DNA of 63,778 bases, filler included, from Collodictyon triciliatum (Eukaryota), in the NCBI GenBank assembly GCA_043381765.1. It is 17 parts of 17 records of this genome, joined end to end, with 100 filler letters (N's around TTAATTAATTAA, not from the genome) between each part and the next. Parts side by side here need not be neighbours in the genome. Positions count along the whole stretch, not along the records: positions 54,107 to 57,865 come from JBHJMP010006924.1; 16 more parts are not named here. One strand, given 5' to 3'. The translations under genes and the position numbers were made by a program. The notes below the pieces were generated by a model that was given only the letters and a program-made list of their open reading frames with translations, ran no database searches and had not been told where the DNA came from. Of the stretch, positions 3,770 to 58,098 are shown one piece after another (position 1 is the stretch's first letter; each line of letters begins with the position of its first letter).

Positions 3770-3869
3770 NNNNNNNNNNNNNNNNNNNNNNNNNNNNNNN
3801 NNNNNNNNNNNNNTTAATTAATTAANNNNNNNNNNNNNNNNNNNNNNNNNNNNNNNNNNNNNNNNNNNN
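3770..3869. other. Artificial contig-joining linker (first of 16)
   Basis: N44-TTAATTAATTAA-N44, with stops in all six frames. Identical 100-bp linkers start at 3770, 7637, 11504, 15369, 19235, 23100, 26965, 30829, 34705, 38567, 42428, 46289, 50148, 54007, 57866 and 61724. The intervening contigs are 3758-3776 bp. Confidence 0.99.
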
Positions 3870-4930: not shown

Positions 4931-7636
4931 ATGGATGAAAAATCGAGCCTTTACGTTGTCAGAGTCACAATAGGTAGCATTACAAAAACTAAATCACAAA
5001 TGAATTCGCAGTCTAAAGTTTTATTTTTCTTCGTCAGAATCTCACAATATAATAAATAGGGATAATCATTATAATTCAGATTATATCATGTGTGTGTGTC
5101 AAGTGTCCTCGATTTACACGGCTGGAACAGGTCATATTCACGCTGTTTGGAGTGTTGCGGTATCTCCTGATGGTTCAAAAATTGCCTCTGGTAGTCAAGA
5201 TTCTACTGTCAAAATTTGGAATCTTTCAGATGGAGCTTTGCTTCAGACAATAATCGGTCATACTAATAGGGTATGGAGTGTTGCTTTTACTTCTGATGGC
5301 TCGAAAGTTGTTTCTGGAAGTGCTGACTTTACTATTAAAATTTGGAACATATTTGACGGATCATTGACCCAGACGTTGGGAGCAGGTACTTATACCTATA
5401 GTGTTGCTACTACCCCTGATTGTTCAAAAGTTGTTTCAGGAGGTTATGATAATAATGTTCAGATTTGGAATCTTCCTGATGGAGCTATTATTCACACATT
5501 GATGGGACATACAAATAGTGTAGTAAGTGTTTCGATTTCTCCTGATGGTTCAAAAATTGTTTCTGGAGGCAACGACTTCACTGTCAAAATCTGGAATATT
5601 TATGATGGAGCTTTTATTCGAACATTGGGTGGTCACACAAGCATCGTTCGTTGCGTTGCTGTTACTCCTGATGGCTCTAAAATTATTTCAGGGAGCTATG
5701 ATAGAACAGTGAAAATCTGGAATATTTCTGATGGAGCTTTGATTCGCACTTTGACTGGTCATACGAGTGGCCTTTTTAGCCTAGCTGTCACTCGTGATAG
5801 CTTGAAAATTGTTTCTGGAAGTTGGGATACGACAATCAAGATATGGAATATTTCTGATGGAAATCTAATTCGCACCTTAAACGCCCATAATCCCGTTTTA
5901 AGTGTTTCCGTTAATGCTGAGGGGTCAAATATTGTTTCTGGAAGCCAAGATAGGATTGTACGGCTTTGGAATCTCTCTGACGGAAGCCCAATATACTCTA
6001 GAGGCTCGAGAGTTACTTCCATCGTGACATCCTCTCCAAAATCGATATCTATTACAGGGCATTCAGACAACATCATCAGAGTTTGGAATCTGTCGAATGG
6101 AAATTTCATTCGTTCGATGGCTGGTCATTCTGATATTGTAAATGCATTGATACTCATTGCTGATAACTCTAAAGTCATATCTGGAAGCTCAGATAAAACA
6201 ATCAAGTTATGGAATGTCGATGATGGTTCTTTGATTCAATCATTTCAAGTCCATACGGAATCAGTGAACTGTGTCGCCATTACAAATAATGAAAAGATAC
6301 TAGTTTCTGGTAGCAGCGATAAGACAATAAAAATTACAAGAATATCTGGCGGAAATATCATTCGCACATTAAATGGGCACACTGGAATCATCACAAGTGT
6401 AGCTTTAACTCCTGATGGCTCAAAGATTGTTTCTGGAAGTTCCGATAAAACCATCAAAGTCTGGAATTTTAATGACGGAACATCGGTTCAAGATATAAAT
6501 TTTCATGCTGATTCTGTTAATTGTGTTGCTGTAACGCCAGATGGAATGAAAATTGTTTCTGGAAGTAGCGATAGAACAATAAAAGTGACCAGTATTTTGG
6601 ATGGAAGCTTGATTCGCTCTCTCAATGGACACACAGGAATAGCCAAAACAATATCAATCTCTCCGGACGGCTCCAAGATTATCTCTGGAAGCAGTGATAA
6701 TACAATTAGAATTTGGAGTCAATCAAGTGGAATGACAAGTAATATCATGAATGAACATGCAGTTACAATTAATGTAATATCAGTTCTCTCAGATAACTCG
6801 AGATTTTTGTCTGGAAGTGATGACACAACAATTAAGATGTGGAATTTTCCAGATTTCAGCTTGACTTTGACTGTTTCAAGCCACACAAGTTCAGTGAATA
6901 GCGTTGCTTTAAGTCCAGATAAAACAAAAATCGTGTCAGGAAGTAGCGACAACACAATAAAATTTTGGAATTTTGCTGATGGTTCTCTAACGCTATCGAT
7001 AAATGCCCATAAAAATTCTGTCAATAGTATTATTATTTCGGCTGATGAAACAAAAGTCGTGTCAGGAAGCAGTGATAATACCGTGAAAATGTGGAATTAC
7101 TCTGATGGCACTCTGTTAATGACACTTATCGGACATAATGCAGCTGTTCGAAGCGTTGCAATATTACCAGATAATTCTGTGATTGTATCAGGAAGTGATG
7201 ACATGAAATTCAATTTTTGGAAAGTTTCAGATGGAATTTTAATTCGCACCTTATCTGGGCATACGAAAGGAATAAATTCTGTTTTTATCACGCCTGATGA
7301 AACAAAAATTATTTCAGGCAGTGCTGATTTTTCCATAAAGATATGGAATTTTTCAGATGGAGCATTAATAAGAACAATCACTGGCCACGGAAATGCCGTA
7401 AGATGTGGTATTACATCTCCAGATGGAAAAAGAATCATCTCTGGAAGCAGCGACAACACAATCAAAATTTGGAATATGTGGGATGGCGTGTTAATCAGAA
7501 CCCTGAATGGACACACAAGCTCAGTAAATAGCATTTCGATATCACCTGATGGAACGAAATTGCACTCTGGAAGCAGTGATAAATCAGTAAAAATATGGAC
7601 AATGTCAGATGGACGAGAAATTCGAACGCTTTTAAG
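4931..7636 (+). CDS. Multi-propeller WD40-repeat protein, copy A (at least 20 repeats, 3' truncated; probable leader exon 4931-4973)
   Basis: ORF 5088-7636 has 20 consecutive repeats of about 42 aa (GH...SGS.D.T.K.WN). An upstream ATG at 4931 and a phase-1 GT donor at 4974 mirror the paralog at 54107-56618. Confidence 0.93.
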
Positions 7637-7736
7637 NNNNNNNNNNNNNNNNNNNNNNNNNNNNNNNNNNNNNNNNNNNNTTAATTAATTAANNNNNNNN
7701 NNNNNNNNNNNNNNNNNNNNNNNNNNNNNNNNNNNN

Positions 7737-7808
<72 letters not shown>

Positions 7809-7862
7809 CTTGAATGATACGTCGAGTTTCAAAAAATAAAATAACAACTAAAGTGTGGGAAC

Positions 7863-8518
7863 CTAATGTCAAATGCTGTTATTGTCTTGTTGGTGTCCAT
7901 AACATCTCGAATGAATTTTCCACCCTCGGCACCTATGATACAATTCACTCATTTCAAACCGGGAGAGTAGTATGAACATGCGCATAGAGTAGAAAATCTT
8001 CCTTGTAAGACCTTCCAAAGGTGTTTCATTTCTTACCGATATTATTACATGACAAATCAACTGTGGTTAGTGAAGAGTTTGAACGTATTATATTCGAAAA
8101 TGCCTTAGCAGTCTCCAAGCCCTTGGAGTTACGTAAGTTAAGATAACGAAATTTAACTAAGAGATCGAAAACAAGAATATGTCAGCGTTCGATGAGGTCA
8201 TGATAATAGCTTGCACTAAAGATAAATCACTCACGAGTTGGTTACTACTCAGATTTAGAAACTGCAAACTAACGTTTCCCTTTAAACCATCAATAATGTA
8301 CTTGCCACCCTCATCCCCCAAAAGGTTCATTCTCTATCAATCTCTTTAGTTAGTGAAGGTAATATACAAATAACCCCTTAAAGCAGAGACATCGTTGAGC
8401 AATCTCGCGTATTGATATTTAGACCTTATATTATTATATTAGTACCAGATTCAGCGACATCAAGCTGATGTTCGTCTTAAGTGCGTGCCCAAGGGCCTTT
8501 GCTCCGGTGTGATGAACC

Positions 8519-8601
<83 letters not shown>

Positions 8602-10446
8602 ATGCAAGAACAATAACCGGACCTCTATATGAGTTAATGTATTTTTATGTTCAATGTGATGCCAACCGAATTATCTTGCAAGTACAAATGAGTGATAACA
8701 CTGGAGGGCGAGTCTAAAACTTTTGCTAGGGCTCGGGCACCGCGGTCACCAATTTTGTTATGAGACAGATCTAACAAATATGTCATGTCAGTGGAACGAA
8801 GCCCTTCCGGTTTTCTAAATTATACATAATATTTTCATGGCCTTAACTTCGATGCCACACATCTTGAGTAATTTTTCACGGGAATGGCTGAATAATGTGT
8901 ACAAACCTATTTGGGTGAGGGTGGGGTTGTCTAAGAGGCCAGTGGCCAAAACACGCAGTTTATCGTCATCCAACAGGTTATGCGAAAGTATCAATGTGCT
9001 CAGGTTTCCACCAACCGAGACACTATTTCGAAGGCACTGAGCCAAAGTAGCGCAGTCTTCCAAAGACATTCCAAACATAGACCACTCAAAGTTCATGCCA
9101 ACGTCACGTCTCCTAAGAAATATTTTATAAAATAACTTAATGAGTCACTTTTGTTTTGTTTTGTTGTTGTTGTTATTGTAATTGGTCCATGTTAGAAAAA
9201 ATAAGAGTATATATATGCAAGCAGAAATGATGAATAGAATAATTAAATTTCAACCCATAAGTCAGTCCAAGCGTGAGGAGATGGGGTAAATTGTCAAAAA
9301 TCTTTTTCAAATCCCAATGACACAACATCTAAAATTTTCATATAAATAATCAAAGAGCGCATTCACAAGACAAAATGTAAAGAGAATGATGTTTTGTTGA
9401 TCCATCGTACTCTTGATGATAGCATTTATATTTTCATGCTCTCTCTCCTTTTTTTTTTTTTTAAAAAAAAAACCGAAAGGAAAACACGTATATAATACTT
9501 GTTTAAGGACTAGATTGCCGATAAATTTGCTCGAAAGTTTCATCAGCTTGACAAGATTGTACATCATGTCGCCTTCATCATCCGTCCGATTGTCGTATGC
9601 TTCGAGGGCCTCAGCGAGATTCCGCTCCATGTACAGGCGTTTCCAAGAGGAACCGTGCTGGGTTATATCACATGTTCTCCATCTCTCTGTCGCACATCGT
9701 TTCCAATACACCTCATCCTCTATCACTTGTGAGGTTATTTCAAGTGGGACGTTTGTGGGTAAAATAGCAACTATTCGATCCATCACCTTCCTGGGCAGGT
9801 CTTTGACTTTGGGTCTCTCTGTACGAAACATATAAATTGGTTATAATTTATGTGATGCATGCTCTCATATAATGTACAGGCATGATCCTCGCCCATGCTT
9901 CATAATTTTTCTTCAATAGATATTTATCTCAACCTGCAAAGTTTCGGACAACAGCCCGGACGCATATTTCCTCTAGAGAAGGAACAACGGCAACTGCTGT
10001 GTGAACGACACTGATTTTGATTGGTCTCTCTATTTGGATAGGTTGCACAGGCGTAGATGGGTTTGCAAATGCTTGTTGCTGTATTTGGGAGAATAAGGAG
10101 CCGTCTTGAAGGTCATCAGAACCTTGTGGCTGCATATGTTTACAAGTAAATCGGATCAGTGTGCCCTTTTGATGAGCAGTTTCTTTTGATGGCGGAACAA
10201 CTTAAAATTAAATATATATAACAGATAAGGAGGAGTAGGAGGTAGGAATCGTGAGACTCTTTGAAGGTTAGATTGTATCTATGATGTTTCGATGATGATC
10301 TAAGGACCATGTTGGCTTGGCTAGTGATGGAAGGAGATGCGTCGTTGAATTCTCTGTCCACACCAAGCCCATTTCCAGAGTTCTCTATTATGTTATTGTG
10401 AAGCAAAGTCAAACAAGATAATGTCGGCTGGAATATTCTTCTTTGA

Positions 10447-42527: not shown

Positions 42528-42625
42528 AAAAACCCATAAAAAACCCATAAAAAACCCATAAAAAACCCATAAAAAACCCATAAAAAACCCATAAAAAACC
42601 CATAAAAAACCCATAAAAAACCCAT
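42528..42625 (-). repeat. (CCCATAAAAAA)n at contig start
   Basis: Reverse complement of the 32005-32330 unit. Confidence 0.95.
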
Positions 42626-42657
42626 AGTAAACGGCAATAAAAGCAGCCAGACACAGG

Positions 42658-46084
<3,427 letters not shown>

Positions 46085-46190
46085 ATAGACAAGACTTGCT
46101 CGGAATCGGCGGTCTCTGGTGCGTCCTGTCCTCGCATTTATTCGCTGCATTATGGCATCGCTGAAAACCAATCGATTCGAGAACGGAAAC

Positions 46191-46288
<98 letters not shown>

Positions 46289-47215
46289 NNNNNNNNNNNN
46301 NNNNNNNNNNNNNNNNNNNNNNNNNNNNNNNNTTAATTAATTAANNNNNNNNNNNNNNNNNNNNNNNNNNNNNNNNNNNNNNNNNNNNATGTATGTATGT
46401 ATGTATGTATGTATGTATGTATGTATGTATGTATGTATGTATGTATGTATGTATGTATGTATGTATGTATGTATGTATGTATACTTTTTAAAGGGTGCTT
46501 CTTTTAATGAATTTGTTGACCTTCTAGATATTTTATATGAAAATGTTATTTATGCATTTTGCACTTCTCAATCGAAGAAATTTTTGTCTTGAAACTCTTA
46601 GTTTTTTTGAATAATTGAAAGTTTCCAAAACAACCAGCATATAACCATTATACAATTATTTTAAGGAACGATATAATATTGCGGTTATAAAGAAGTCCAC
46701 AAAAATCGCTACCGAAACAAAACCTACAAAATAATGTGGTGGATTCAGGTATATAATTTCAGAATTCATGATCAAAATGTGATCCCTGCATAATTTTTTG
46801 TGACAAGAAACCATGTTTTGTCCAAAACCAACTCGACAGTTTTTATGGGATACAATTCACCTTATTCCTTTATAAATTGAGCATTTTGTCTTGTTATGCA
46901 TGAAAATTATTGAATCATAGACTATATTTCTTTAATTAAAACCGGAAATCTCAATGAAAAACACATTTATCTCATTCATTCAATACAAAAAAGTACAAAA
47001 TTCAACCTTCGTTTTTAAATCCGATTGAGTTACATTTTAATTTTTTTTAATCTTCCTTTCAATTTGTGCAAGAAGATTGATATTTTGGCTTGGTGTTAGG
47101 TTTTAATTGTGATGAAAAATTTACAATTTGGAAACCAATCCCAACTTCTGGGAGGAAAGACAAGAATAAGCTAATGATTGTTTTTTTTCTGATATAGAGT
47201 ATTCTTGCCGCACTA

Positions 47216-50147
47216 ATGATGTATTTGGTTTTCATCGAATTTGTCAACTGCCAGTGCACAATTCCTAGTGCACAACCTTTTGGACTCCTTTTGAGATCTG
47301 ACTTAACAATATCATCATGCCTTGGGTCCTCCATAATATCACAACCGTCCAATCTAGTAGCATCGATGGACCAGTGGCTTTCCGATGGATCGCAACCCAT
47401 GTCTCAATTAACGAGTACAAGCAATAATCACAACATTTTATTAACGTCTTCAGCAACCATTTACATTTCATTCATTACAGAAGGAGGAGCTTATCGCAGT
47501 TCATTCGGCTATTTTGTGTATGATAGCAATCAAAATATATTGTCAAAAAATGTTATTATACCAGATGCATCAAAAGATCCATCAACACTGAGAAGTGGGC
47601 AAACAGTCCAAGTTGGACAGTTTGCATCAGGTACCAGAGTGGGATTCTTTTTAATATCGGATGGATTCAACGATAAATTCTGGGCCAACAACGTGGACGG
47701 ATCAACTTTCTATACAATTCCGTCCAAAAATCCTGACAAGAAACAACACATGGTGATGGCAACAGATGGACATACTGGTAAAATAATACTTGGTATCGAG
47801 GATATGTACGGACTCGGAGATAGAGACTATAACGATGCCATTTTTTTCATCACGATAGATGGTACCATCAACAATAACCAATTTCCTACGGTTATTTTGG
47901 CAACTACACCATTAAATGACGATGTAAAATTTTCTCTTCAACTGAATATTGGTCTGGCTGATTCTATTAAGATAAGCACCTTACCATCAAAAGGAATTAT
48001 ATATCAAGTTAATGGTGACGGGTCCAAAGGTGCATCAATAACGTCAACAAATACATTTGTTTCTAACAAAAACCATAACCTAATATTCTCGCCAACCTCA
48101 AGCACCACTGGTGCGCCATACGCATCTTTTACTGTGACTGAAAACCTTCAAAACGGTCAAACAATATCTGTTCTAGTTCGAGTTGACGTTTTATCAGTTT
48201 CTTCATACGCCCCCAGTCCACAAGCCAGTTCTGTGACAACAACTGCTGGTACATTGACAACTATCAAGTTGACAGGAACTGATAAAAACAACTTCAATTT
48301 AATTTCATCAATATCATCTCTACCAAGCCAGGGTTCATTGTATCAGTATGATGTTAGTACAAAAGGGACAAAAATAACGTCAATTAACACGGAGGTTACA
48401 GATCCATTGAACAGGATATTCTACGAGAGCAACAATCAATACATCGCTTCGCCTATATCTGATTCATTCCTCTTCAAAATGTCAAACAATATGCAACTTT
48501 CAGGAACCGCTCGAATTTCATTGACAATAAATGTAAGACCTAATAACCCTCCAACATCGTCTTCTATCTCCATTACAATAGACCAAGATACAAGTGGTTG
48601 TATAGAAATAATCGCAAGCGATGCCAATGATGATCCTTTAACAGTAACAATATCTACACTACCATCCAACGGAAATATATATCAAACAAGTGATGGAATA
48701 TCAAAGCAAAATCAAATAACAAGTTCTGGAACTATCCTTTCATCATCTATATCATATATTTGGAGAGTTATTGCAGAGCCTACTGCCAAACTATATGGTA
48801 CTGCATTAATGAACTTTCAGTTCGTAGTGAAAGATTATTCTTCCTCTAACGCATACACTGCGACCGTTAACGTAAATTTTGTAAACAAGCCCCCTATTTC
48901 CTCTCCGGTATATCTAACAATCCAAGAAAGTAGCGAACTTAATGTAATTACAGATAGCCTGTGGAATACACACGTAAATTGTGATCCAGATAATAGCCTC
49001 TCAAGTTTATCGCTACTAATAGTCACATTACCAAAATTTGGAGATTTGAAGGACAACGCAGGCCTAAAAATATTAAAGTCTTCCCTCCCCCAAAAAATTG
49101 ACTATGGTCTCATTGCGTCCTACAGTCCACCTTTTATTGGTTATGGAGAACCTTATACAAATTTCACTTTCCAGATAAGTGACAACCGCGGAGGAATATC
49201 TTTAACAAACACTTTTACAATCAACATTAACCATATAAATCACCCACCAGTTGCGATGGTACCAGATTCAATAATCACTAATATGAACTATGTGGCCACA
49301 ATTTTAATTAAAGGCGAAGATTTAGACATGGGAGACAACCTATGGTTCATGATTTCCAACTTACCAACAAAATCAGGAAGTTACCTAACTTTCGAAAAAA
49401 GTAGTATAATAATTAATGAAATGTACAGTCTACATTTACAGGGTGCGAACATAACATACGTACCAGCTCCAAATCAGTTTTATACCGACCAGTTCGAAAT
49501 CAAAATAATTGATTCTGCCCATACATACGATGTTAAAATTATAACCATTACAGTAAAATACTATCAATCTATTTCAAAATCCCTGACAAAGTCTCATTCA
49601 CTGTCCAAATCATGGACAAAATCTCGGTCGAAATCACGGTCCAAGTCACGGTCCAAACTCCGGTCCAAATCACGGTCCAAATCTCGGTCCAAATCTCGGT
49701 CCAAATCCCGGTCCAAACAGCGGTCCAAATCCAAGTCTAAACCCCGATCCAAATCTCGATCCAAACCCCGGTCGAAATCCCGGTCCAAACCCCGGTCGAA
49801 ATCCCGGTCAAAATCCCGGTCGAAATCCCGGTCGAAATCCCGGTCGAAATCCCGGTCGAAATCCCGGTCGAAATCCCGGTCGAAATCCCGGTCGAAATCC
49901 TGGTCGAAATCCCGGTCGAAATCCCGGTCGAAATCCCGGTCGAAATCCCGGTCGAAATCCCGGTCGAAATCCCAATCCCAATCTCAGTCTCAATCTAAAT
50001 CTCAATCTCAATCTCAATCTCAATCTCAATCTCAATCTCAATCTCAATCTCAATCTCAATCTCAATCTCAATCTCAATCTCAATCCCAATCCCAATCCCA
50101 ATCCCAATCCCAATCCCAATCCCAATCCCAATCCCAATCCCAATCCC
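47216..50147 (+). CDS. Predicted surface/secreted protein: DUF4114-like domain, Ig-like (Big_9/cadherin-like) repeats and (SRSK)n/(SQ)n stalk; 3' truncated
   Basis: Uninterrupted ORF. DUF4114-like motifs: EGGAYRSSFGYF, GTRVGFFLISDGF, FYTIPSKNPD and ILGIEDMYGLGDRDYNDAIF. Repeats have N.PP, SDANDDPLTVTISTLPSNG and F.F.V.D. Confidence 0.85.
49570..50147 (+). repeat. Coding tandem repeats: (CGGTCGAAATCC)n = RSKS, then (CAATCY)n = QS
   Basis: In frame within the 47216 ORF. Synonymous variation among units is consistent with a coding role. Confidence 0.9.
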
Positions 50148-51923: not shown

Positions 51924-53777
51924 TCATTTATCAGGCCCGCACCCCTCAGGCTGCACCGCATCGTTCTCGCCTGGGCCGAGTATCTGCTGGATGATGCGAC
52001 ACGCCGCATCCTTGTCCACATCCACGTTATGGCTGCTGCACTTTGGCGAATGCACACAGGACGGACATCCACCCGCACATCCGCACCCGGCCAGAGCCTT
52101 CGAGACAGCCCGGAGCAGCTCGGCGGCAACGTGGAAGACGCGCTCACAAAGCCCGGCTCCGCCTTCGCACCCGTCGTAGATCATTATGCGTCCCGGCCCG
52201 CTCGCAGAGGCACTTGAACTCAAACTCCCCGTTGCAGCCTCATCCCGTGGACAGACGACATGGACATCACCCGGGTCGGTGATTACAAAGAGCGGCACGA
52301 CAGACTCGAGCACATGTGCGATTGCGTGGATGCCGCCAAGGAAGCGATAGTATCGTGTGCTCCGGTTTGTGCCCAGCTGTGAAGACACCTGCATGATGGA
52401 GGAGAGGATGCATATTCCAATTTTCTTGATGGTCCATTCCATATAATATTGTCTTTATTATTGTTATAATTACTTTTTTTTTTTTTTTTATAAAAAACAC
52501 AAAATATTGTTCGTATTTACATGGCTTTTTGCTAATCTTTTTTCTTTGTTTTTTTCTTTTCATTTCTCTTGTTTATTTCATATCTGAATCTTTTACCAAT
52601 ATTTCAATAACTATTATCATCATCTTTTTCTTTGTAATTTATTTATCTCTGTCTTCCTCCTGTGTGGAATAGAAAAAAAGACTCGCCATGATGTCCCTAG
52701 AGAGGTCGATCCAGACGCCCTTTGTGGTGAACCGGGTTGATGGGAGATCCAAGTCTATGTTTTCGTATGCCAGCTGGGAGACCTCGTATATCTGTACGTT
52801 TCATACAAAAGAGGTAAGACTACTGTCGAAAGAAAGCAGCGTATATACTACCTAGGCGGTACGATGACTACGAGCATATTCACACACCGACAAAGTATGA
52901 CTTGAATAGGGTGATTGCACATAGAAAATCGAAACAAAAGCTGAAAAGAATCTCTCGGAAAAATATAATACTAATACTAATAATAAATAATTTAAACGCA
53001 TAAAACTATAAAATCGTGACTTCTATGGATGTAAAGATAACACGTATATACACAACACAAAATTATTTATACATAACCAGGTACAAAGACAGAATATAAA
53101 CCATCACCACAGCTATCTACCTTGCTGTATCCAAGGACCGAGAGACGCACATCGACGCGGCCGAAGGAGACACTATGGTGACCGAAGACGGGACTTGTGC
53201 GGACAACATCGACAGGCAGGACGCTGGTGCGGCTGCGGGGCCTGGTGAAGTAGTTGACGCGCACGGCACGCACCCGGGCTGCCATGGCCTCGTGGCTGAG
53301 AGAAAGGACCTCGTAAGCATCGCCCTGGTTCAGGAGGATAGCGCCCGGATGGATGCGCAGATGCGCGAGGCCCTCTTCAACCTCCTCCAGCACCGCCCCT
53401 GTGGACTCGAGAACGACGGCAAAGCGCTTTGCACTGGCCGAGCGGATGCCAAACTTCTGCGACGGGAAGTCATCGCGGGCGTAGCGGAAGCAACTGTCTC
53501 CACATGCAGCCATGAGGCCGGCCCTGTGCTGCTCTTCTACAACCGGCACCAGCGAAGCCCCGTACATCTCACAGTCCTGCGGCCCGATGTCCAGCTCCTT
53601 TGCCGCGCAGAGTGTGTGCTTCTCCATGATACAGACGTTCTCTGGGTCGATCACCACGCACTCGTGCGGCCGCGAAAAGACTTCCCCGGCGTTCTGCATG
53701 AAGTACTGGTCCAGTGGTGATTCGTACCCGACAAGGAACGAGACGGAGTCGCGCGTTCCGCGGCCGCATCGTCCGAC
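51924..53777 (-). CDS. HRQ1: Hrq1/MrfA (RecQ4-family) helicase, C-terminal part with DUF1998 Zn-binding domain (5' partial)
   Basis: Motif VI GRCGRG, PLDQYF, HTLCAAKEL, IHPGAILLNQG..Y, GGIHAIAH, IYDGCEGGAG and CGCAGGCPSCVHSPKCSSHN. Confidence 0.9.
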
Positions 53778-54106: not shown

Positions 54107-56618
54107 GTTCCAAATTTTGATTGTGTTATCGCTGCTTCCAGAGAGGATTCTTGTTCCATCTGGAGAGGTAATGACACACCTGACAGCATTTCCGTGACCT
54201 GTTATGGTTCTGAGTAATGCTCCATCTGATATACCCCATACTTTTATTGAAAAATCAGCACTGCCTGATATAATTTTGGTATTGTCAGGAATGATAAAAA
54301 CAGAATTCACTCCTTTTGTATGTCCAGATAATGTTCGAGTTAAAGTTCCATCCGAAACTCTCCAAACATTTATATTTGTATCATCACTTCCTGATACTAT
54401 AACAGAATTATCCGATGTTACTGCTGCGCTTCGAACAGCTGAAGTATGTCCATTAAAGGTTTTCAATAATAAACCATCTGAGAAATTCCACATTTTAACG
54501 GTATTGTCGCTGCTTCCTGAGACTATTTTTGTTCCATCAGCCGAAACAACTACACTATTCACAGCACTTGTATGTGCATTTATTGAAAGAGCTTGAGAAC
54601 CATCAGCATAATTCCAGATTCTTATTGTGTTGTCACTACTTCCTGATACAATTTTTGTTTTATCTTGGCTCAAAGCAACGCTATTCACTGAACTTGTGTG
54701 GCCTGAAACTGTCAAAGTCAAGCTGAAATCAGGAAAGCTCCACAATTTGATTGTTGTGTCATCGTTTCCAGACAAAAATTTTAAGCCATCAGAAAGAACT
54801 GAAATTCCATTAATTCCAAGAATGTGCTCGTTCATTATATTTATGGTCACTCCGCTTGAAAAATTCCAAATTCTGAGGGTGTAATCACTGCTTCCAGAAA
54901 CAATTTTTGAGCCGTCAGAAGAAATCGAAACAGTGTTGACTACTCCGGTGTGCCCATTGAGTGTGTGAATTAAAGTTCCGTCTAAAATGCTTGTTATTTT
55001 TATTGATTTATCGCTGCTTCCTGAAACAATTTTTGTTCCATCTGATGTGATTAAAACGCAGTTCACATAATCAGTGTGAACTTTTATATCTTGGACTAAT
55101 GTTCCATCAAAAAATTTCCAAACTTTGATTGTTTTGTCTGAACTTCCGGACACAATGTTTGAATTATCGGGAGTTAAAGCAACACTTGTTACAATTCCAG
55201 TGTGCCCAGTCAACGTTCTAATTAATTTTCCATCAGATATGTTTGTAATTCTTATTGTTTTATCGCTGCTTCCTGATATAATTTTTGATCCATCTGAAGT
55301 TAAAGCAACTGAGTTAACTGATTCAGAATGTATTTCAAATGATTGAATCAAAGAACCGTCTTCAACATTCCATAACTTGATTGTTTTATCTGAACTTCCA
55401 GAGATTACTTTGGAGCCATTTGCTGTTAAAGTCAGCGTGTTAACGACATCTGTATGTCCAATCAACGACCTGATTAAATTGCCATATGGCAGATTCCAAA
55501 TCCTAATGATGTAGTCTGAGTGCCCTGATATAGAAATTGATTTTGACTGAGAAGAAGCCATGCTTGTAACTCTGGAACCTCTTGAGTAAACAGGACTTCC
55601 ATCATTAAAATTCCAAAGTCTTACAGTTCGGTCTACGCTCCCAGACACAATTTTTGAGCCATCAGGGGAGACAAAAACACTCCATATTTGATGTAAATGA
55701 CCAGTCAATGTGCGAATCAAAGCTCCATCATAAAGATTCCAGATTTTGATTGTTCTATCCCAACTTCCTGAAACAATGTTTGAGCCATTAGGAGTAACAG
55801 CAACGCTCCAAACATAACTAGTATGACCAGTCAATGTGCGAATCAAAGCTCCATCAGAAAGATTCCACATTTTGATTGTATCATCTCCACTTCCAGACAC
55901 AATTTTTGAGCAATCAGGGGAGACTAAAACACTCCAAACTTGATGTAAATGACCAGTCAATGTGCGAATCAAAGCTCCATCAGAAAGATTCCAAATCTTG
56001 ATAGTACTATCCCAGCTTCCAGAAACAATTTTTGAACCATCAATAGTAACGGCAACACTCCAAACAGCATAAGTGTGACCAGTCAATGTGCGAATCAAAG
56101 CTCCATCATAAAGATTCCAGATTTTGATTGTTTTATCCCAACTTCCAGAAACAATATTTGAATTATTATGAGAGACAACAACACTAAGAACACCACTAGT
56201 ATGACCAGTCAATGTGCGAATCAAAGTTCCATCAGAGAGATTCCAAAGTTTAATAGTGCCATCTTCGCTTCCAGATCCAATTTTAGATCCATCAAGAGTA
56301 ACAGCGACACTCCTAACAGCATGATTATGACCAGTCAATGTGCGAATCAAAGCTATATCAGAAAAATTCCAAATTTTGATTGTTTTTTCAGCACTTCCAG
56401 ATATAATTTTTGAACCATCAGGAGTAACAGCAACACTCCAAACTGAATTAGTATGACCAGTTCCGGCTGTGTAAATCGAAGAAACTTGCGCAGAAATCGA
56501 CGAAATGTACTCAAGGATGGTGATTGCTATAAAAAATTGTTATAATAGAAAAGAGAATGATTCAGAATGAAAAGGGCTTACCCAGTATTATTTGCTTAAG
56601 ATGTAGACTCTTCTGCAT
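54107..56618 (-). CDS. Multi-propeller WD40-repeat protein, copy B, with signal-peptide-like leader (exon 1 56582-56618, intron 56527-56581; 3' truncated)
   Basis: The spliced N-terminus MQKSLHLKQIIL|AITILEYISSISAQVSSIYTAGTGH... is in frame with the supplied 54059-56350 ORF. 19 WD40 repeats are visible. Confidence 0.93.
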
Positions 56619-58098
56619 TGTTGTAGAAACTATTAACGTAACAATATTCATTATAATTTTTGTCTATAAGCAGCATCCTTTAACTCTCTTAATTCAACCA
56701 ATATTTTCTTTCGTGTAATTTTCGGCCTTCTGTTTTCTAAATTTATTCGAATAGTGTGTTGCTTTGATGATTACTAATATGCATTAAATTTACGTAATTC
56801 TGATCTATTTTATTAATTTTTCAACAGAATGCAAATATAAAATGTTTTTTCGCTCATTATTAAGTGTTATAGAAGAATTAAATATAAACTGATATGATGT
56901 GATGTAAGAAATATAATAATAAAATAAAATAAAAATTAATTCAAATTAAACATGATATAGTTGCACAGTAGTATATCATTTGACTAAATATAATTTATAA
57001 ATGACAATGGTGAAGTATAGACAAGACTCTGTAATAATCTTTCTACGATTCATATAAAATTTTTTAATATGTGAATTTTGGTAAATTCCGAAATTCCAAC
57101 GATAATTTTAATACATTAATTTCAAAAAATTGTTGTATTCGAGAAAATATATTCAGAGCTTATTTCACTTTGTAATAATGCAGGTATATTTTTGCCCTTT
57201 TTATCCTCATTTTTTAATGTTTAATCCATATTTAAAATGTCAAGTTCATAGAATATTGAAAAAAAATAATTATGAGTCAAAAATTATTACAAATAAAAGG
57301 AGAAGAATGTATACTAAATTGTTGCAGAAATCATTCAATTATAATAGATACTTTCAAATAGGACTTAATTTTTGTATTAAAATGCAAATCAATTTGAAAA
57401 GTATTTAGTAAAAATTTCCCTTTTTTATTTTCTTTTTACATATTTTACATTATTAAAATGAAGCAGATTAAATAATGTTTATTGACTTGACTAAAGTGTG
57501 ACAAAGTGTGATTTAAAATAAATAAATGAATAAATAGCTAAAAAAATGATCCTCTTTAATATTTATAATTCAATCTCCTTAAGTCATCCATTGTACAAAA
57601 ATTTATCATGGGAAAAAACTTTGAAATTTAACATAATATTACTCATTCATCCAGATCAAAATTCAAATTAAACAAATCAATATTTCACGTTTTCCTTGTG
57701 CTAATCAAAAGCATATAAAATATCCTGAGAAGCCTAGACCAATTATATTTCAAGCAGGTCGATAGAAAGATAGAGCTTCATATTTCTTTTTTATACAAAT
57801 TTTTTACAATTTTGTTTCCGATTAATAAGTGACACTTCTAAGCAGATTTATCAACAAATGCTATGNNNNNNNNNNNNNNNNNNNNNNNNNNNNNNNNNNN
57901 NNNNNNNNNTTAATTAATTAANNNNNNNNNNNNNNNNNNNNNNNNNNNNNNNNNNNNNNNNNNNNAAAAGAAAAAAAGAAAAAAAGAAAAAAAAGAAAAA
58001 AAAGAAAAAAAAGAAAAAAAAGAAAAAAAAGAAAAAAAAGAAAAAAAAGAAAAAAAGAAAAAAAAAGAAAAAAAGAAGAGAAAGATGAGCAGCTACTG

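Follow-up and report, generated by a model that had tools for sequence, protein, structure and literature searches.

Two triple-propeller WD40 genes of Collodictyon triciliatum that differ in the first propeller and conserve the other two

To our knowledge, few WD40 arrays outside fungi have been documented that unite DNA-level homogenisation of the repeat units with variability at four ligand-contact positions. In the NWD genes of the fungus Podospora, four codons are under positive selection, in one pair in the d-a loop (unit positions 7 and 9) and one pair in the b-c turn (positions 25 and 27), according to PMC1805685. PMC4986451 gives the fungal criterion for highly similar repeats as more than 85% amino acid identity over at least 100 residues between repeats. 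Here we describe two WD40 genes, A and B, from a 63,778-base stretch of the draft assembly of the flagellate Collodictyon triciliatum (hereafter the window, which joins 17 contigs). The proteins of these genes have a variable first propeller upon conserved second and third propellers. This arrangement, first noticed in a first-pass annotation of the same DNA, is real.

Gene A occupies 54107–56618 on the minus strand, at the low end of piece 15 of the window, and gene B occupies 4931–7636 on the plus strand, at the high end of piece 2. They lie on separate 3.76-kb contigs, and each is cut by a contig end within its repeat array. The open frames comprise 811 codons in gene A and 877 codons in gene B, and the visible WD40 blades number 19 and 20, respectively, rather than the 21 repeats counted previously. 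In Pfam searches, PF00400 (WD40; cut-off 27 bits) matched 17 stretches of the gene A protein (E 2.5e-177, 568 bits) and 19 stretches of the gene B protein (E 1.1e-178, 573 bits), and no Pfam families other than WD40/beta-propeller models were found in either protein. Blades were defined in both proteins as 42-residue units counted from GH. An AlphaFold2 model of gene A (794 residues, calculated from an input alignment of 2 rows) has a mean predicted local distance difference test score (pLDDT) of 83.3 and forms four strands per unit, the shortened blade 8 included. Its low-confidence breaks, at model residues 302–305 and 586–596, coincide with two junction motifs, YSRGSRVTS and FPDFSLTLTVS, indicating that these motifs are hinges between three seven-bladed propellers (blades 1–7, blades 8–14, and blade 15 onward). 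The best solved match of the model in a Foldseek search was 2ymu_A (E 4e-55, template modelling score 0.75, 42% identity, 577 aligned columns). The propellers are placed as follows.

55577..56485, minus strand: gene A propeller 1, the variable module; closing strand VSSIYTAG plus blades 1–7, with the linker at residues 302–305 marking its end
54704..55576, minus strand: gene A propeller 2, blades 8–14; opens with YSRGSRVTS and the shortened blade 8, with the linker at residues 586–596 marking its end
54107..54703, minus strand: gene A propeller 3, incomplete; blades 15–19, entered via FPDFSLTLTVS
5103..6005, plus strand: gene B propeller 1, blades 1–7
6006..7636, plus strand: gene B propellers 2 and 3, the constant part, blades 8–20

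The shared peculiarities that had been reported for the two paralogs are all present, including YSRGSRVTS as a linker, the replacement of W by IT/VT in blades 10 and 12, the FPDFSLTLTVS stretch of blade 14, GHTKG.NSVFI and GHGNAVRC in blades 18 and 19, respectively, and a predominance of SGSSD. The residues before D in blades 1–7 likewise agree with that report (A/E/W/W/G/W/V in one gene and Q/A/Y/N/Y/W/Q in the other), as do the residues that follow GH. The window is not contiguous, and genes A and B belong to different contigs in it.

For the constant part, nucleotide identities between A and B blades were compared in fixed register. The same-numbered B blade is the best match for 10 of the 11 blades 9–19, at 67–88% identity, and off-diagonal identities are mostly 45–65%. 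The exception is A10, which matches B12 (70%) better than B10 (67%). A maximum-likelihood tree (IQ-TREE) of 37 blades contains nine strongly supported positional pairs (9, 11, and 13–19), a clade of blades 10 and 12 (97/98), and a pair formed by the two copies of blade 7 (90/98). Positional orthology, which had been claimed for repeats 8–19, holds for blades 9–19 apart from A10. Over these blades, the nonsynonymous divergence (dN) is 0.143 and the synonymous divergence (dS) is 0.804, a ratio of 0.18, indicating that the two genes are old, that both are under purifying selection, and that they are not alleles. The possibility that A and B are alleles was also rejected by the blastn comparison, in which 0 of the 40 best alignments fell upstream of the repeats.

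The first propeller shows a different pattern. For blades 1–6, the positional partner is never the best match (0/6); the best B partners of A1 to A6 are B5, B1, B6, B1, B1, and B5, respectively. A shifted register between the A and B blades was ruled out, as no consistent offset was found. Blade 7 does pair by position (67% nucleotide identity, with the tree support given above), such that the loss of positional pairing that had been claimed for repeats 1–7 applies to the first six. The tree leaves blades 1–6 unresolved. The within-gene clustering that had been expected for repeats 1–7 is limited to A3 with A6 (75/80) and B2 with B4 (87/92), and there is no supported A1–6 clade.

Within gene A, the first six blades are much alike, with mean identities of 80.4% (nucleotide) and 72.9% (amino acid; maximum 83.3%), compared with 56.5% and 46.3% for A9–18. 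In gene B, the corresponding values are 66.2% and 56.6% for B1–6, and the other propellers have 43.1% amino acid identity. Among blades A1–6, third codon positions are identical in 160 of 165 comparisons in the d-strand/GH tract, compared with 144 of 225 in strands a-b. In gene A, an exact repeat of 57 nt is common to the tail of blade 3 and the tail of blade 6, whereas exact repeats in gene B reach 22 nt at most. Tandem Repeats Finder detected DNA-level tandem repeats in both genes, confined to propeller 1, and detected none in the constant part. The repeats in gene B have a period of 126 and lie at 5151–5745 (66% matches) and 5584–5861 (76% matches). The array in gene A also shows longer periods of 252 and 378 (82–83% matches). 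The gene A features are listed below.

55641..56461, minus strand: gene A tandem array (Tandem Repeats Finder: period 126, 6.5 copies, 77% matches)
56076..56132, minus strand: 57-nt exact repeat, first copy (tail of blade 3)
55698..55754, minus strand: 57-nt exact repeat, second copy (tail of blade 6)

Concerted evolution is seen within gene A only. The identity between A6 and B5 (83% nucleotide) is as high as that of the better positional pairs and is a hint of unit exchange between the genes.

The differences between the two genes are concentrated at the contact positions. Columns 5, 7, 23, and 25 of our units, counted from GH, correspond with identical spacing to positions 7, 9, 25, and 27 of PMC1805685. 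On the AlphaFold2 model, the variable sites map to the b-c turn and to the beginning of strand a or the residues immediately ahead of it, in agreement with the placement in PMC1805685. At these four columns, A and B differ at 25 of 28 positions in propeller 1 and at 9 of 44 in blades 9–19 (Fisher p = 6.6e-9). The variable sites are those that diversify in fungal HET-E/NWD repeats, as described in PMC1805685. The other 38 columns differ at 34% in propeller 1 and 25% in blades 9–19. The composition of the contact positions follows the same division. W, Y, F, H, or R occupies 12/28 (A) and 14/28 (B) of them in propeller 1, compared with 5/44 and 4/48 elsewhere, and Trp alone accounts for 8/28 (A) and 3/28 (B) in propeller 1, compared with 0/44 and 0/48 elsewhere. 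Asn and Ser predominate at the equivalent sites of propellers 2 and 3, and these sites show conservation between A and B. Among B1–6, the contact columns carry the highest entropies, tied with column 42; among A1–6, columns 5 and 25 rank at the top, with columns 4 and 13 at or above the level of columns 23 and 7. Comparison among A1–6 gave a dN of 1.09 at the four contact codons and a dS of 0.32 for the remaining codons, suggesting that differences among the contact residues were kept or arose while homogenisation affected the flanks. The contact-codon dN values are saturated (1.1–2.0, compared with a dS of 0.32–0.66 for the other codons), and two genes are compared.

For the 5' ends of the genes, short leader exons are proposed as listed below.

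56582..56618, minus strand: proposed exon 1 of gene A; ATG at 56618, 12 codons plus 1 base, MQKSLHLKQIIL; donor GTAAGC
56527..56581, minus strand: proposed intron of gene A, 55 nt, phase 1; GTAAGC...TTTTTTATAG, ends TATAG
54107..56526, minus strand: exon 2 of gene A; leader AITILEYISSISAQ, then 19 WD40 blades, cut inside blade 19
4931..4973, plus strand: possible exon 1 of gene B, MDEKSSLYVVRVTI; a weak model, one of 51 enumerated
5080..7636, plus strand: main exon of gene B; 20 WD40 blades, the contig ending after the last of them

The first in-frame ATG of the gene A main frame does not occur before blade 5. Of the 17 ATG/GT/AG models enumerated for gene A, the one with the proposed exon 1 ranked first, and in this model the spliced N-terminus would read MQKSLHLKQIILAITILEYISSISAQVSS. 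The exon model of gene B involves the donor GTAGCA, a 106-nt intron (4974–5079), and the acceptor TTCAG; an alternative start is the in-frame ATG at 5088 (MCVCQVSS). The modelled leaders place the start 22–26 residues ahead of the repeats. Judged by eye, that of gene A looks like a signal peptide (MQKSLHLKQIILAITILEYISSISA followed by Q). No NACHT/NTPase or other domain was found within the 1.2–1.3 kb available upstream on each contig, and the five upstream open reading frames (ORFs) of 40–92 residues matched 0 Pfam families at E up to 1. The earlier statement that the repeats are not preceded by a NACHT domain is borne out over this distance, and a further exon beyond the contig end is possible.

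Introns of 55 and 106 nt are plausible for this genome, given the gaps of 65–164 nt, mostly ending in TAG, in a homology-mapped gene of the same window. This multi-exon leucine-rich repeat (LRR) gene (7862–10105, minus strand, piece 3) has nine segments that match a 531-residue protein from the Diphylleia rotans transcriptome (EukProt) with 42–89% identity, seven of them at 69–89%. RNI-type LRR ORFs at 8026–8333 were considered as a candidate nucleotide-binding LRR receptor (NLR) and rejected, as they are part of this gene. Its product may resemble the axonemal TCTE1/DRC5 protein. The match of this one gene, together with near-identical fragments of piece 15 in two freshwater metagenome runs, makes it probable that the host is a freshwater flagellate related to Diphylleia, which belongs to a deep eukaryote lineage with sparse sampling.

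Searches for relatives of the WD40 proteins returned large numbers of generic matches. A search among proteins of similar length gave 7445 proteins at E <= 0.001 among 8000 candidates, and the best 120 of these 7445 show 26–45% identity; those listed include NB-ARC/NACHT domain-containing proteins of Stenomitos, Microcystis, and Coleofasciculus, with 36–45% identity over the repeats. In a search among shorter proteins with residues 300–700, 5103 of 8000 candidates matched, the best 120 at 27–46%. An exhaustive HMMER search with the constant part against 1.84 billion representatives produced 423,497 matches, the best 150 at 24–49%. Among the matches listed, all three protein searches returned WD40 proteins of a generic kind, most of them STAND-WD40 proteins of cyanobacteria and fungi; no ortholog was among them, and none had an identity above 49%; the proteins of the window may be missing from these libraries. 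In the matches examined, there was no YSRGSRVTS, no FPDFSLTLTVS, and no NTPase-less three-propeller layout. An ortholog in Diphylleia that is as conserved as the LRR protein (about 72%) would top the lists, so it is either absent from the transcriptome set or much more diverged.

Metagenomes provided further matches. A scan of metagenome contigs with the generic patterns DNTVKMW and DNTIKIW, which are poorly suited to finding orthologs, gave 592 stretches and 522 relatives, of which 80 were kept; the best-segment identities were 26–56%, all to generic WD40 sequences. Two freshwater metagenome runs gave shares of 0.07 and 0.05, and no RNA run was listed. These runs contributed 33 and 39 contig pieces at >= 80% likeness. 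Near-identical pieces include one of 266 nt with 0 differences (54454–54719) and one of 151 nt with 1 difference (56725–56875). Independent contigs with 0–3 differences (records 2, 15, and 16) cover the constant part and the upstream region only, and not propeller 1. Many pieces that are 80–95% alike stack on the propeller-1 repeats, where the word depth reaches 48 in a bin, compared with 0–5 on the constant part. These pieces may be further copies of the genes, or unrelated WD40 DNA drawn to a consensus-like repeat.

Taken together, we favor a modular adaptor with a gene-specific first propeller and fixed propellers 2 and 3, to which we assign a probability of about 50%. Genes A and B would be two old paralogs that encode a WD40 protein of three seven-bladed propellers with a leader of 22–26 residues and no NTPase domain. 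Propellers 2 and 3 would form a conserved module whose Asn/Ser top face presumably binds a partner common to both proteins. Propeller 1 would be a specificity module, the blades of which have been kept alike or made alike by intragenic duplication or gene conversion. The gene-specific first propeller would hold a ligand, and the shared partner on propellers 2 and 3 would receive it. Judging from the sequences, we infer that these faces bind ligands and that the pattern may reflect selection for different specificities.

Several observations weigh against the adaptor interpretation or limit its reach. Just two genes were seen, both truncated and on separate short contigs, and should the assembly be a mixture of two related organisms, they could be orthologs instead of paralogs. 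Of the five AlphaFold2 models, three were poor (pLDDT 29–34), and the alignment had 2 rows only. Top-face positions vary among the blades of any WD40 protein. Variation in this DNA was first noticed at these same contact columns; the set that was tested, however, came from the literature. In gene B, identical third codon positions number 82/165 in the d-strand/GH tract and 140/225 in strands a-b, indicating no recent homogenisation, such that events confined to gene A could explain why positional pairing was lost. Finally, neutral simulation at 0.65–0.8 substitutions per site predicts amino acid differences at 74–78% of positions, and the observed 25/28 (89%) is not significantly higher (p = 0.11). 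With two saturated sequences, positive selection is indistinguishable from an absence of constraint, although the Trp-rich composition of the contact positions argues against decay. The description of propeller 1 as diversifying, made in the first-pass annotation, is accordingly not supported, given this neutral expectation and the restriction of recent homogenisation to gene A. Its description of the genes as a family fared no better, as all 61 tblastn matches in the window (61/61) fall inside genes A and B and no further WD40 copy was found there.

Much of this could fit a pair of subfunctionalised scaffold paralogs, in which one partial duplication or conversion rewrote A1–6 and the contact differences reflect fixed partner surfaces or relaxed constraint with no ongoing diversification. 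We regard this explanation as possible, if tentative. It agrees with the presence of only two copies in the window, the lack of a homogenised tract in gene B, the compatibility of the contact differences with neutrality, and the repeat identities below the fungal 85% criterion, and a small number of segmental duplications could account for the 252- and 378-nt periods of gene A. It accounts less well for the contact-codon dN of A1–6 (1.09), which is far above the dS elsewhere (0.32), for Trp at 8/28 contact positions, which is unlike decay, and for propeller-1 blades being more alike than the others in both genes (72.9% and 56.6% versus 46.3% and 43.1% amino acid identity). A multi-copy, actively diversifying receptor family for prey, pathogen, or self/non-self recognition, similar to HET-E/NWD but without NACHT, would go further than the adaptor interpretation and seems unlikely on present analysis. 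The diversifying positions are the same as those of HET-E/NWD, gene A shows concerted evolution, the contact face is rich in aromatic residues, the host is probably a relative of the freshwater flagellate Diphylleia, and the metagenome contigs 80–95% alike to propeller-1 repeats could be further copies. However, those pieces are not assignable to this organism and consensus-like repeats draw unrelated WD40 DNA, no third copy exists within the window, the contact differences do not exceed the neutral expectation, and the truncated sequences, with their C-termini missing, contain no signalling or effector domain. More specific still, and rather improbable in our estimate, is a secreted or surface recognition family in a predatory freshwater flagellate, in which a signal-peptide-like leader, a reshuffled Trp/Tyr/Arg cassette, and a constant site for partner docking would be combined. 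Such a cassette might be reshuffled by gene conversion, for example for recognition of prey or microbial surface glycans, and the family would be an NTPase-less extracellular counterpart of HET-E/NWD in a deep-branching eukaryote lineage. A technical origin, with the near-identical 126-nt units of gene A collapsed or misordered by a short-read assembler, appears very improbable. Both genes do break inside the array on contigs of about 3.76 kb, the 57-nt exact repeat and the tract common to six units could tangle a k-mer graph, and the independent contigs with 0–3 differences leave propeller 1 uncovered. Nevertheless, the frame is open throughout and contains exactly seven units, as in gene B. 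A permutation of units would keep one-to-one partners, whereas B1 is the best match for three A blades, B5 for two, and B2–B4 for none. In addition, the exact repeats in gene B are <= 22 nt, and yet B1–6 also lack A partners.

The 17 contigs of the window range from 3769 down to 1955 bases and are ordered by length. Their joints contain 32 runs of 44 N, paired around the 12-mer TTAATTAATTAA (N44-TTAATTAATTAA-N44; e.g., 3770–3869 and 7637–7736). Most contigs have microsatellites at their start or end. The pieces derive from a fragmented draft assembly. The GC content per contig ranges from 32% to 47%, and it is possible that some contigs are of mixed origin.

The other contigs carry several genes of separate interest. 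An open frame of approximately 1000 residues (47198–50147, plus strand) runs off its contig end; it has a signal-peptide-like N-terminus (MMYLVFIEFVNC followed by Q) and contains DUF4114, SibA-like Ig, and bacterial cadherin-like domains, behind which comes a long tail of low complexity (Ser-Lys/Ser-Arg/Ser-Gln); its product is probably a surface adhesion protein. An ORF at 25301–26068 (plus strand) has a glycosyltransferase family 64 domain (E 5.9e-26). ORFs at 51924–53777 (minus strand), on a contig with a GC content of 41%, above that of the WD40 contigs, have an HRQ1-type helicase winged-helix domain (E 3.7e-06). At 19538–22155 (minus strand), two overlapping ORFs of 631 and 283 residues in different frames have no Pfam match; they have a poly-T in their overlap and could represent a single gene that is interrupted by a short intron or a frameshift error. 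Finally, a contig with a GC content of 46% has long ORFs that overlap on both strands (42528–46288); the frame at 42917–43312 resembles a DEAD-box helicase motif by eye, and the frame at 42631–43443 has no Pfam match.

The pattern in genes A and B would keep a changeable cassette for recognition apart from a fixed module for docking inside one repeat protein. Should further copies exist that differ among isolates, these genes would represent a new type of diversifying binding protein and could serve as a natural template when propeller specificities are to be swapped. If there are just two copies, the genes would be ordinary scaffold paralogs that underwent a single internal conversion event.

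Among known systems, the solved structure 2ymu ("highly repetitive propeller structure") shares with these proteins the tandem seven-bladed WD40 propellers of very similar units and differs in having two propellers rather than three or more. 2ymu is a cyanobacterial protein. STAND NTPase-WD40 proteins of cyanobacteria and fungi, which join a NACHT or NB-ARC domain to arrays of 14 blades, are the best sequence matches, with 36–45% identity over the repeats; among the matches listed, identities are 49% or lower, and unlike A and B, the matches examined have neither the junction motifs nor an NTPase-less layout. The fungal NWD proteins HET-E, HET-D, and HET-R of Podospora anserina share 42-residue units of the GH...SGS.D.T.K.W type, the variation at four positions per unit, one pair being in the d-a loop and the other in the b-c turn (PMC1805685), and a DNA-level homogenisation of units, which is here found in gene A and is weaker. 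Genes A and B fall short of the fungal 85% identity (A1–6 mean 72.9%, maximum 83.3%; B1–6 mean 56.6%), as defined in PMC4986451. Unlike the fungal proteins, they have no visible NACHT or N-terminal effector domain, the variable part is only the first of three propellers, and the host is not a fungus. What is new in comparison is the occurrence of HET-E/NWD-like repeat dynamics without an NTPase, in one of three propellers, in a non-fungal protist.

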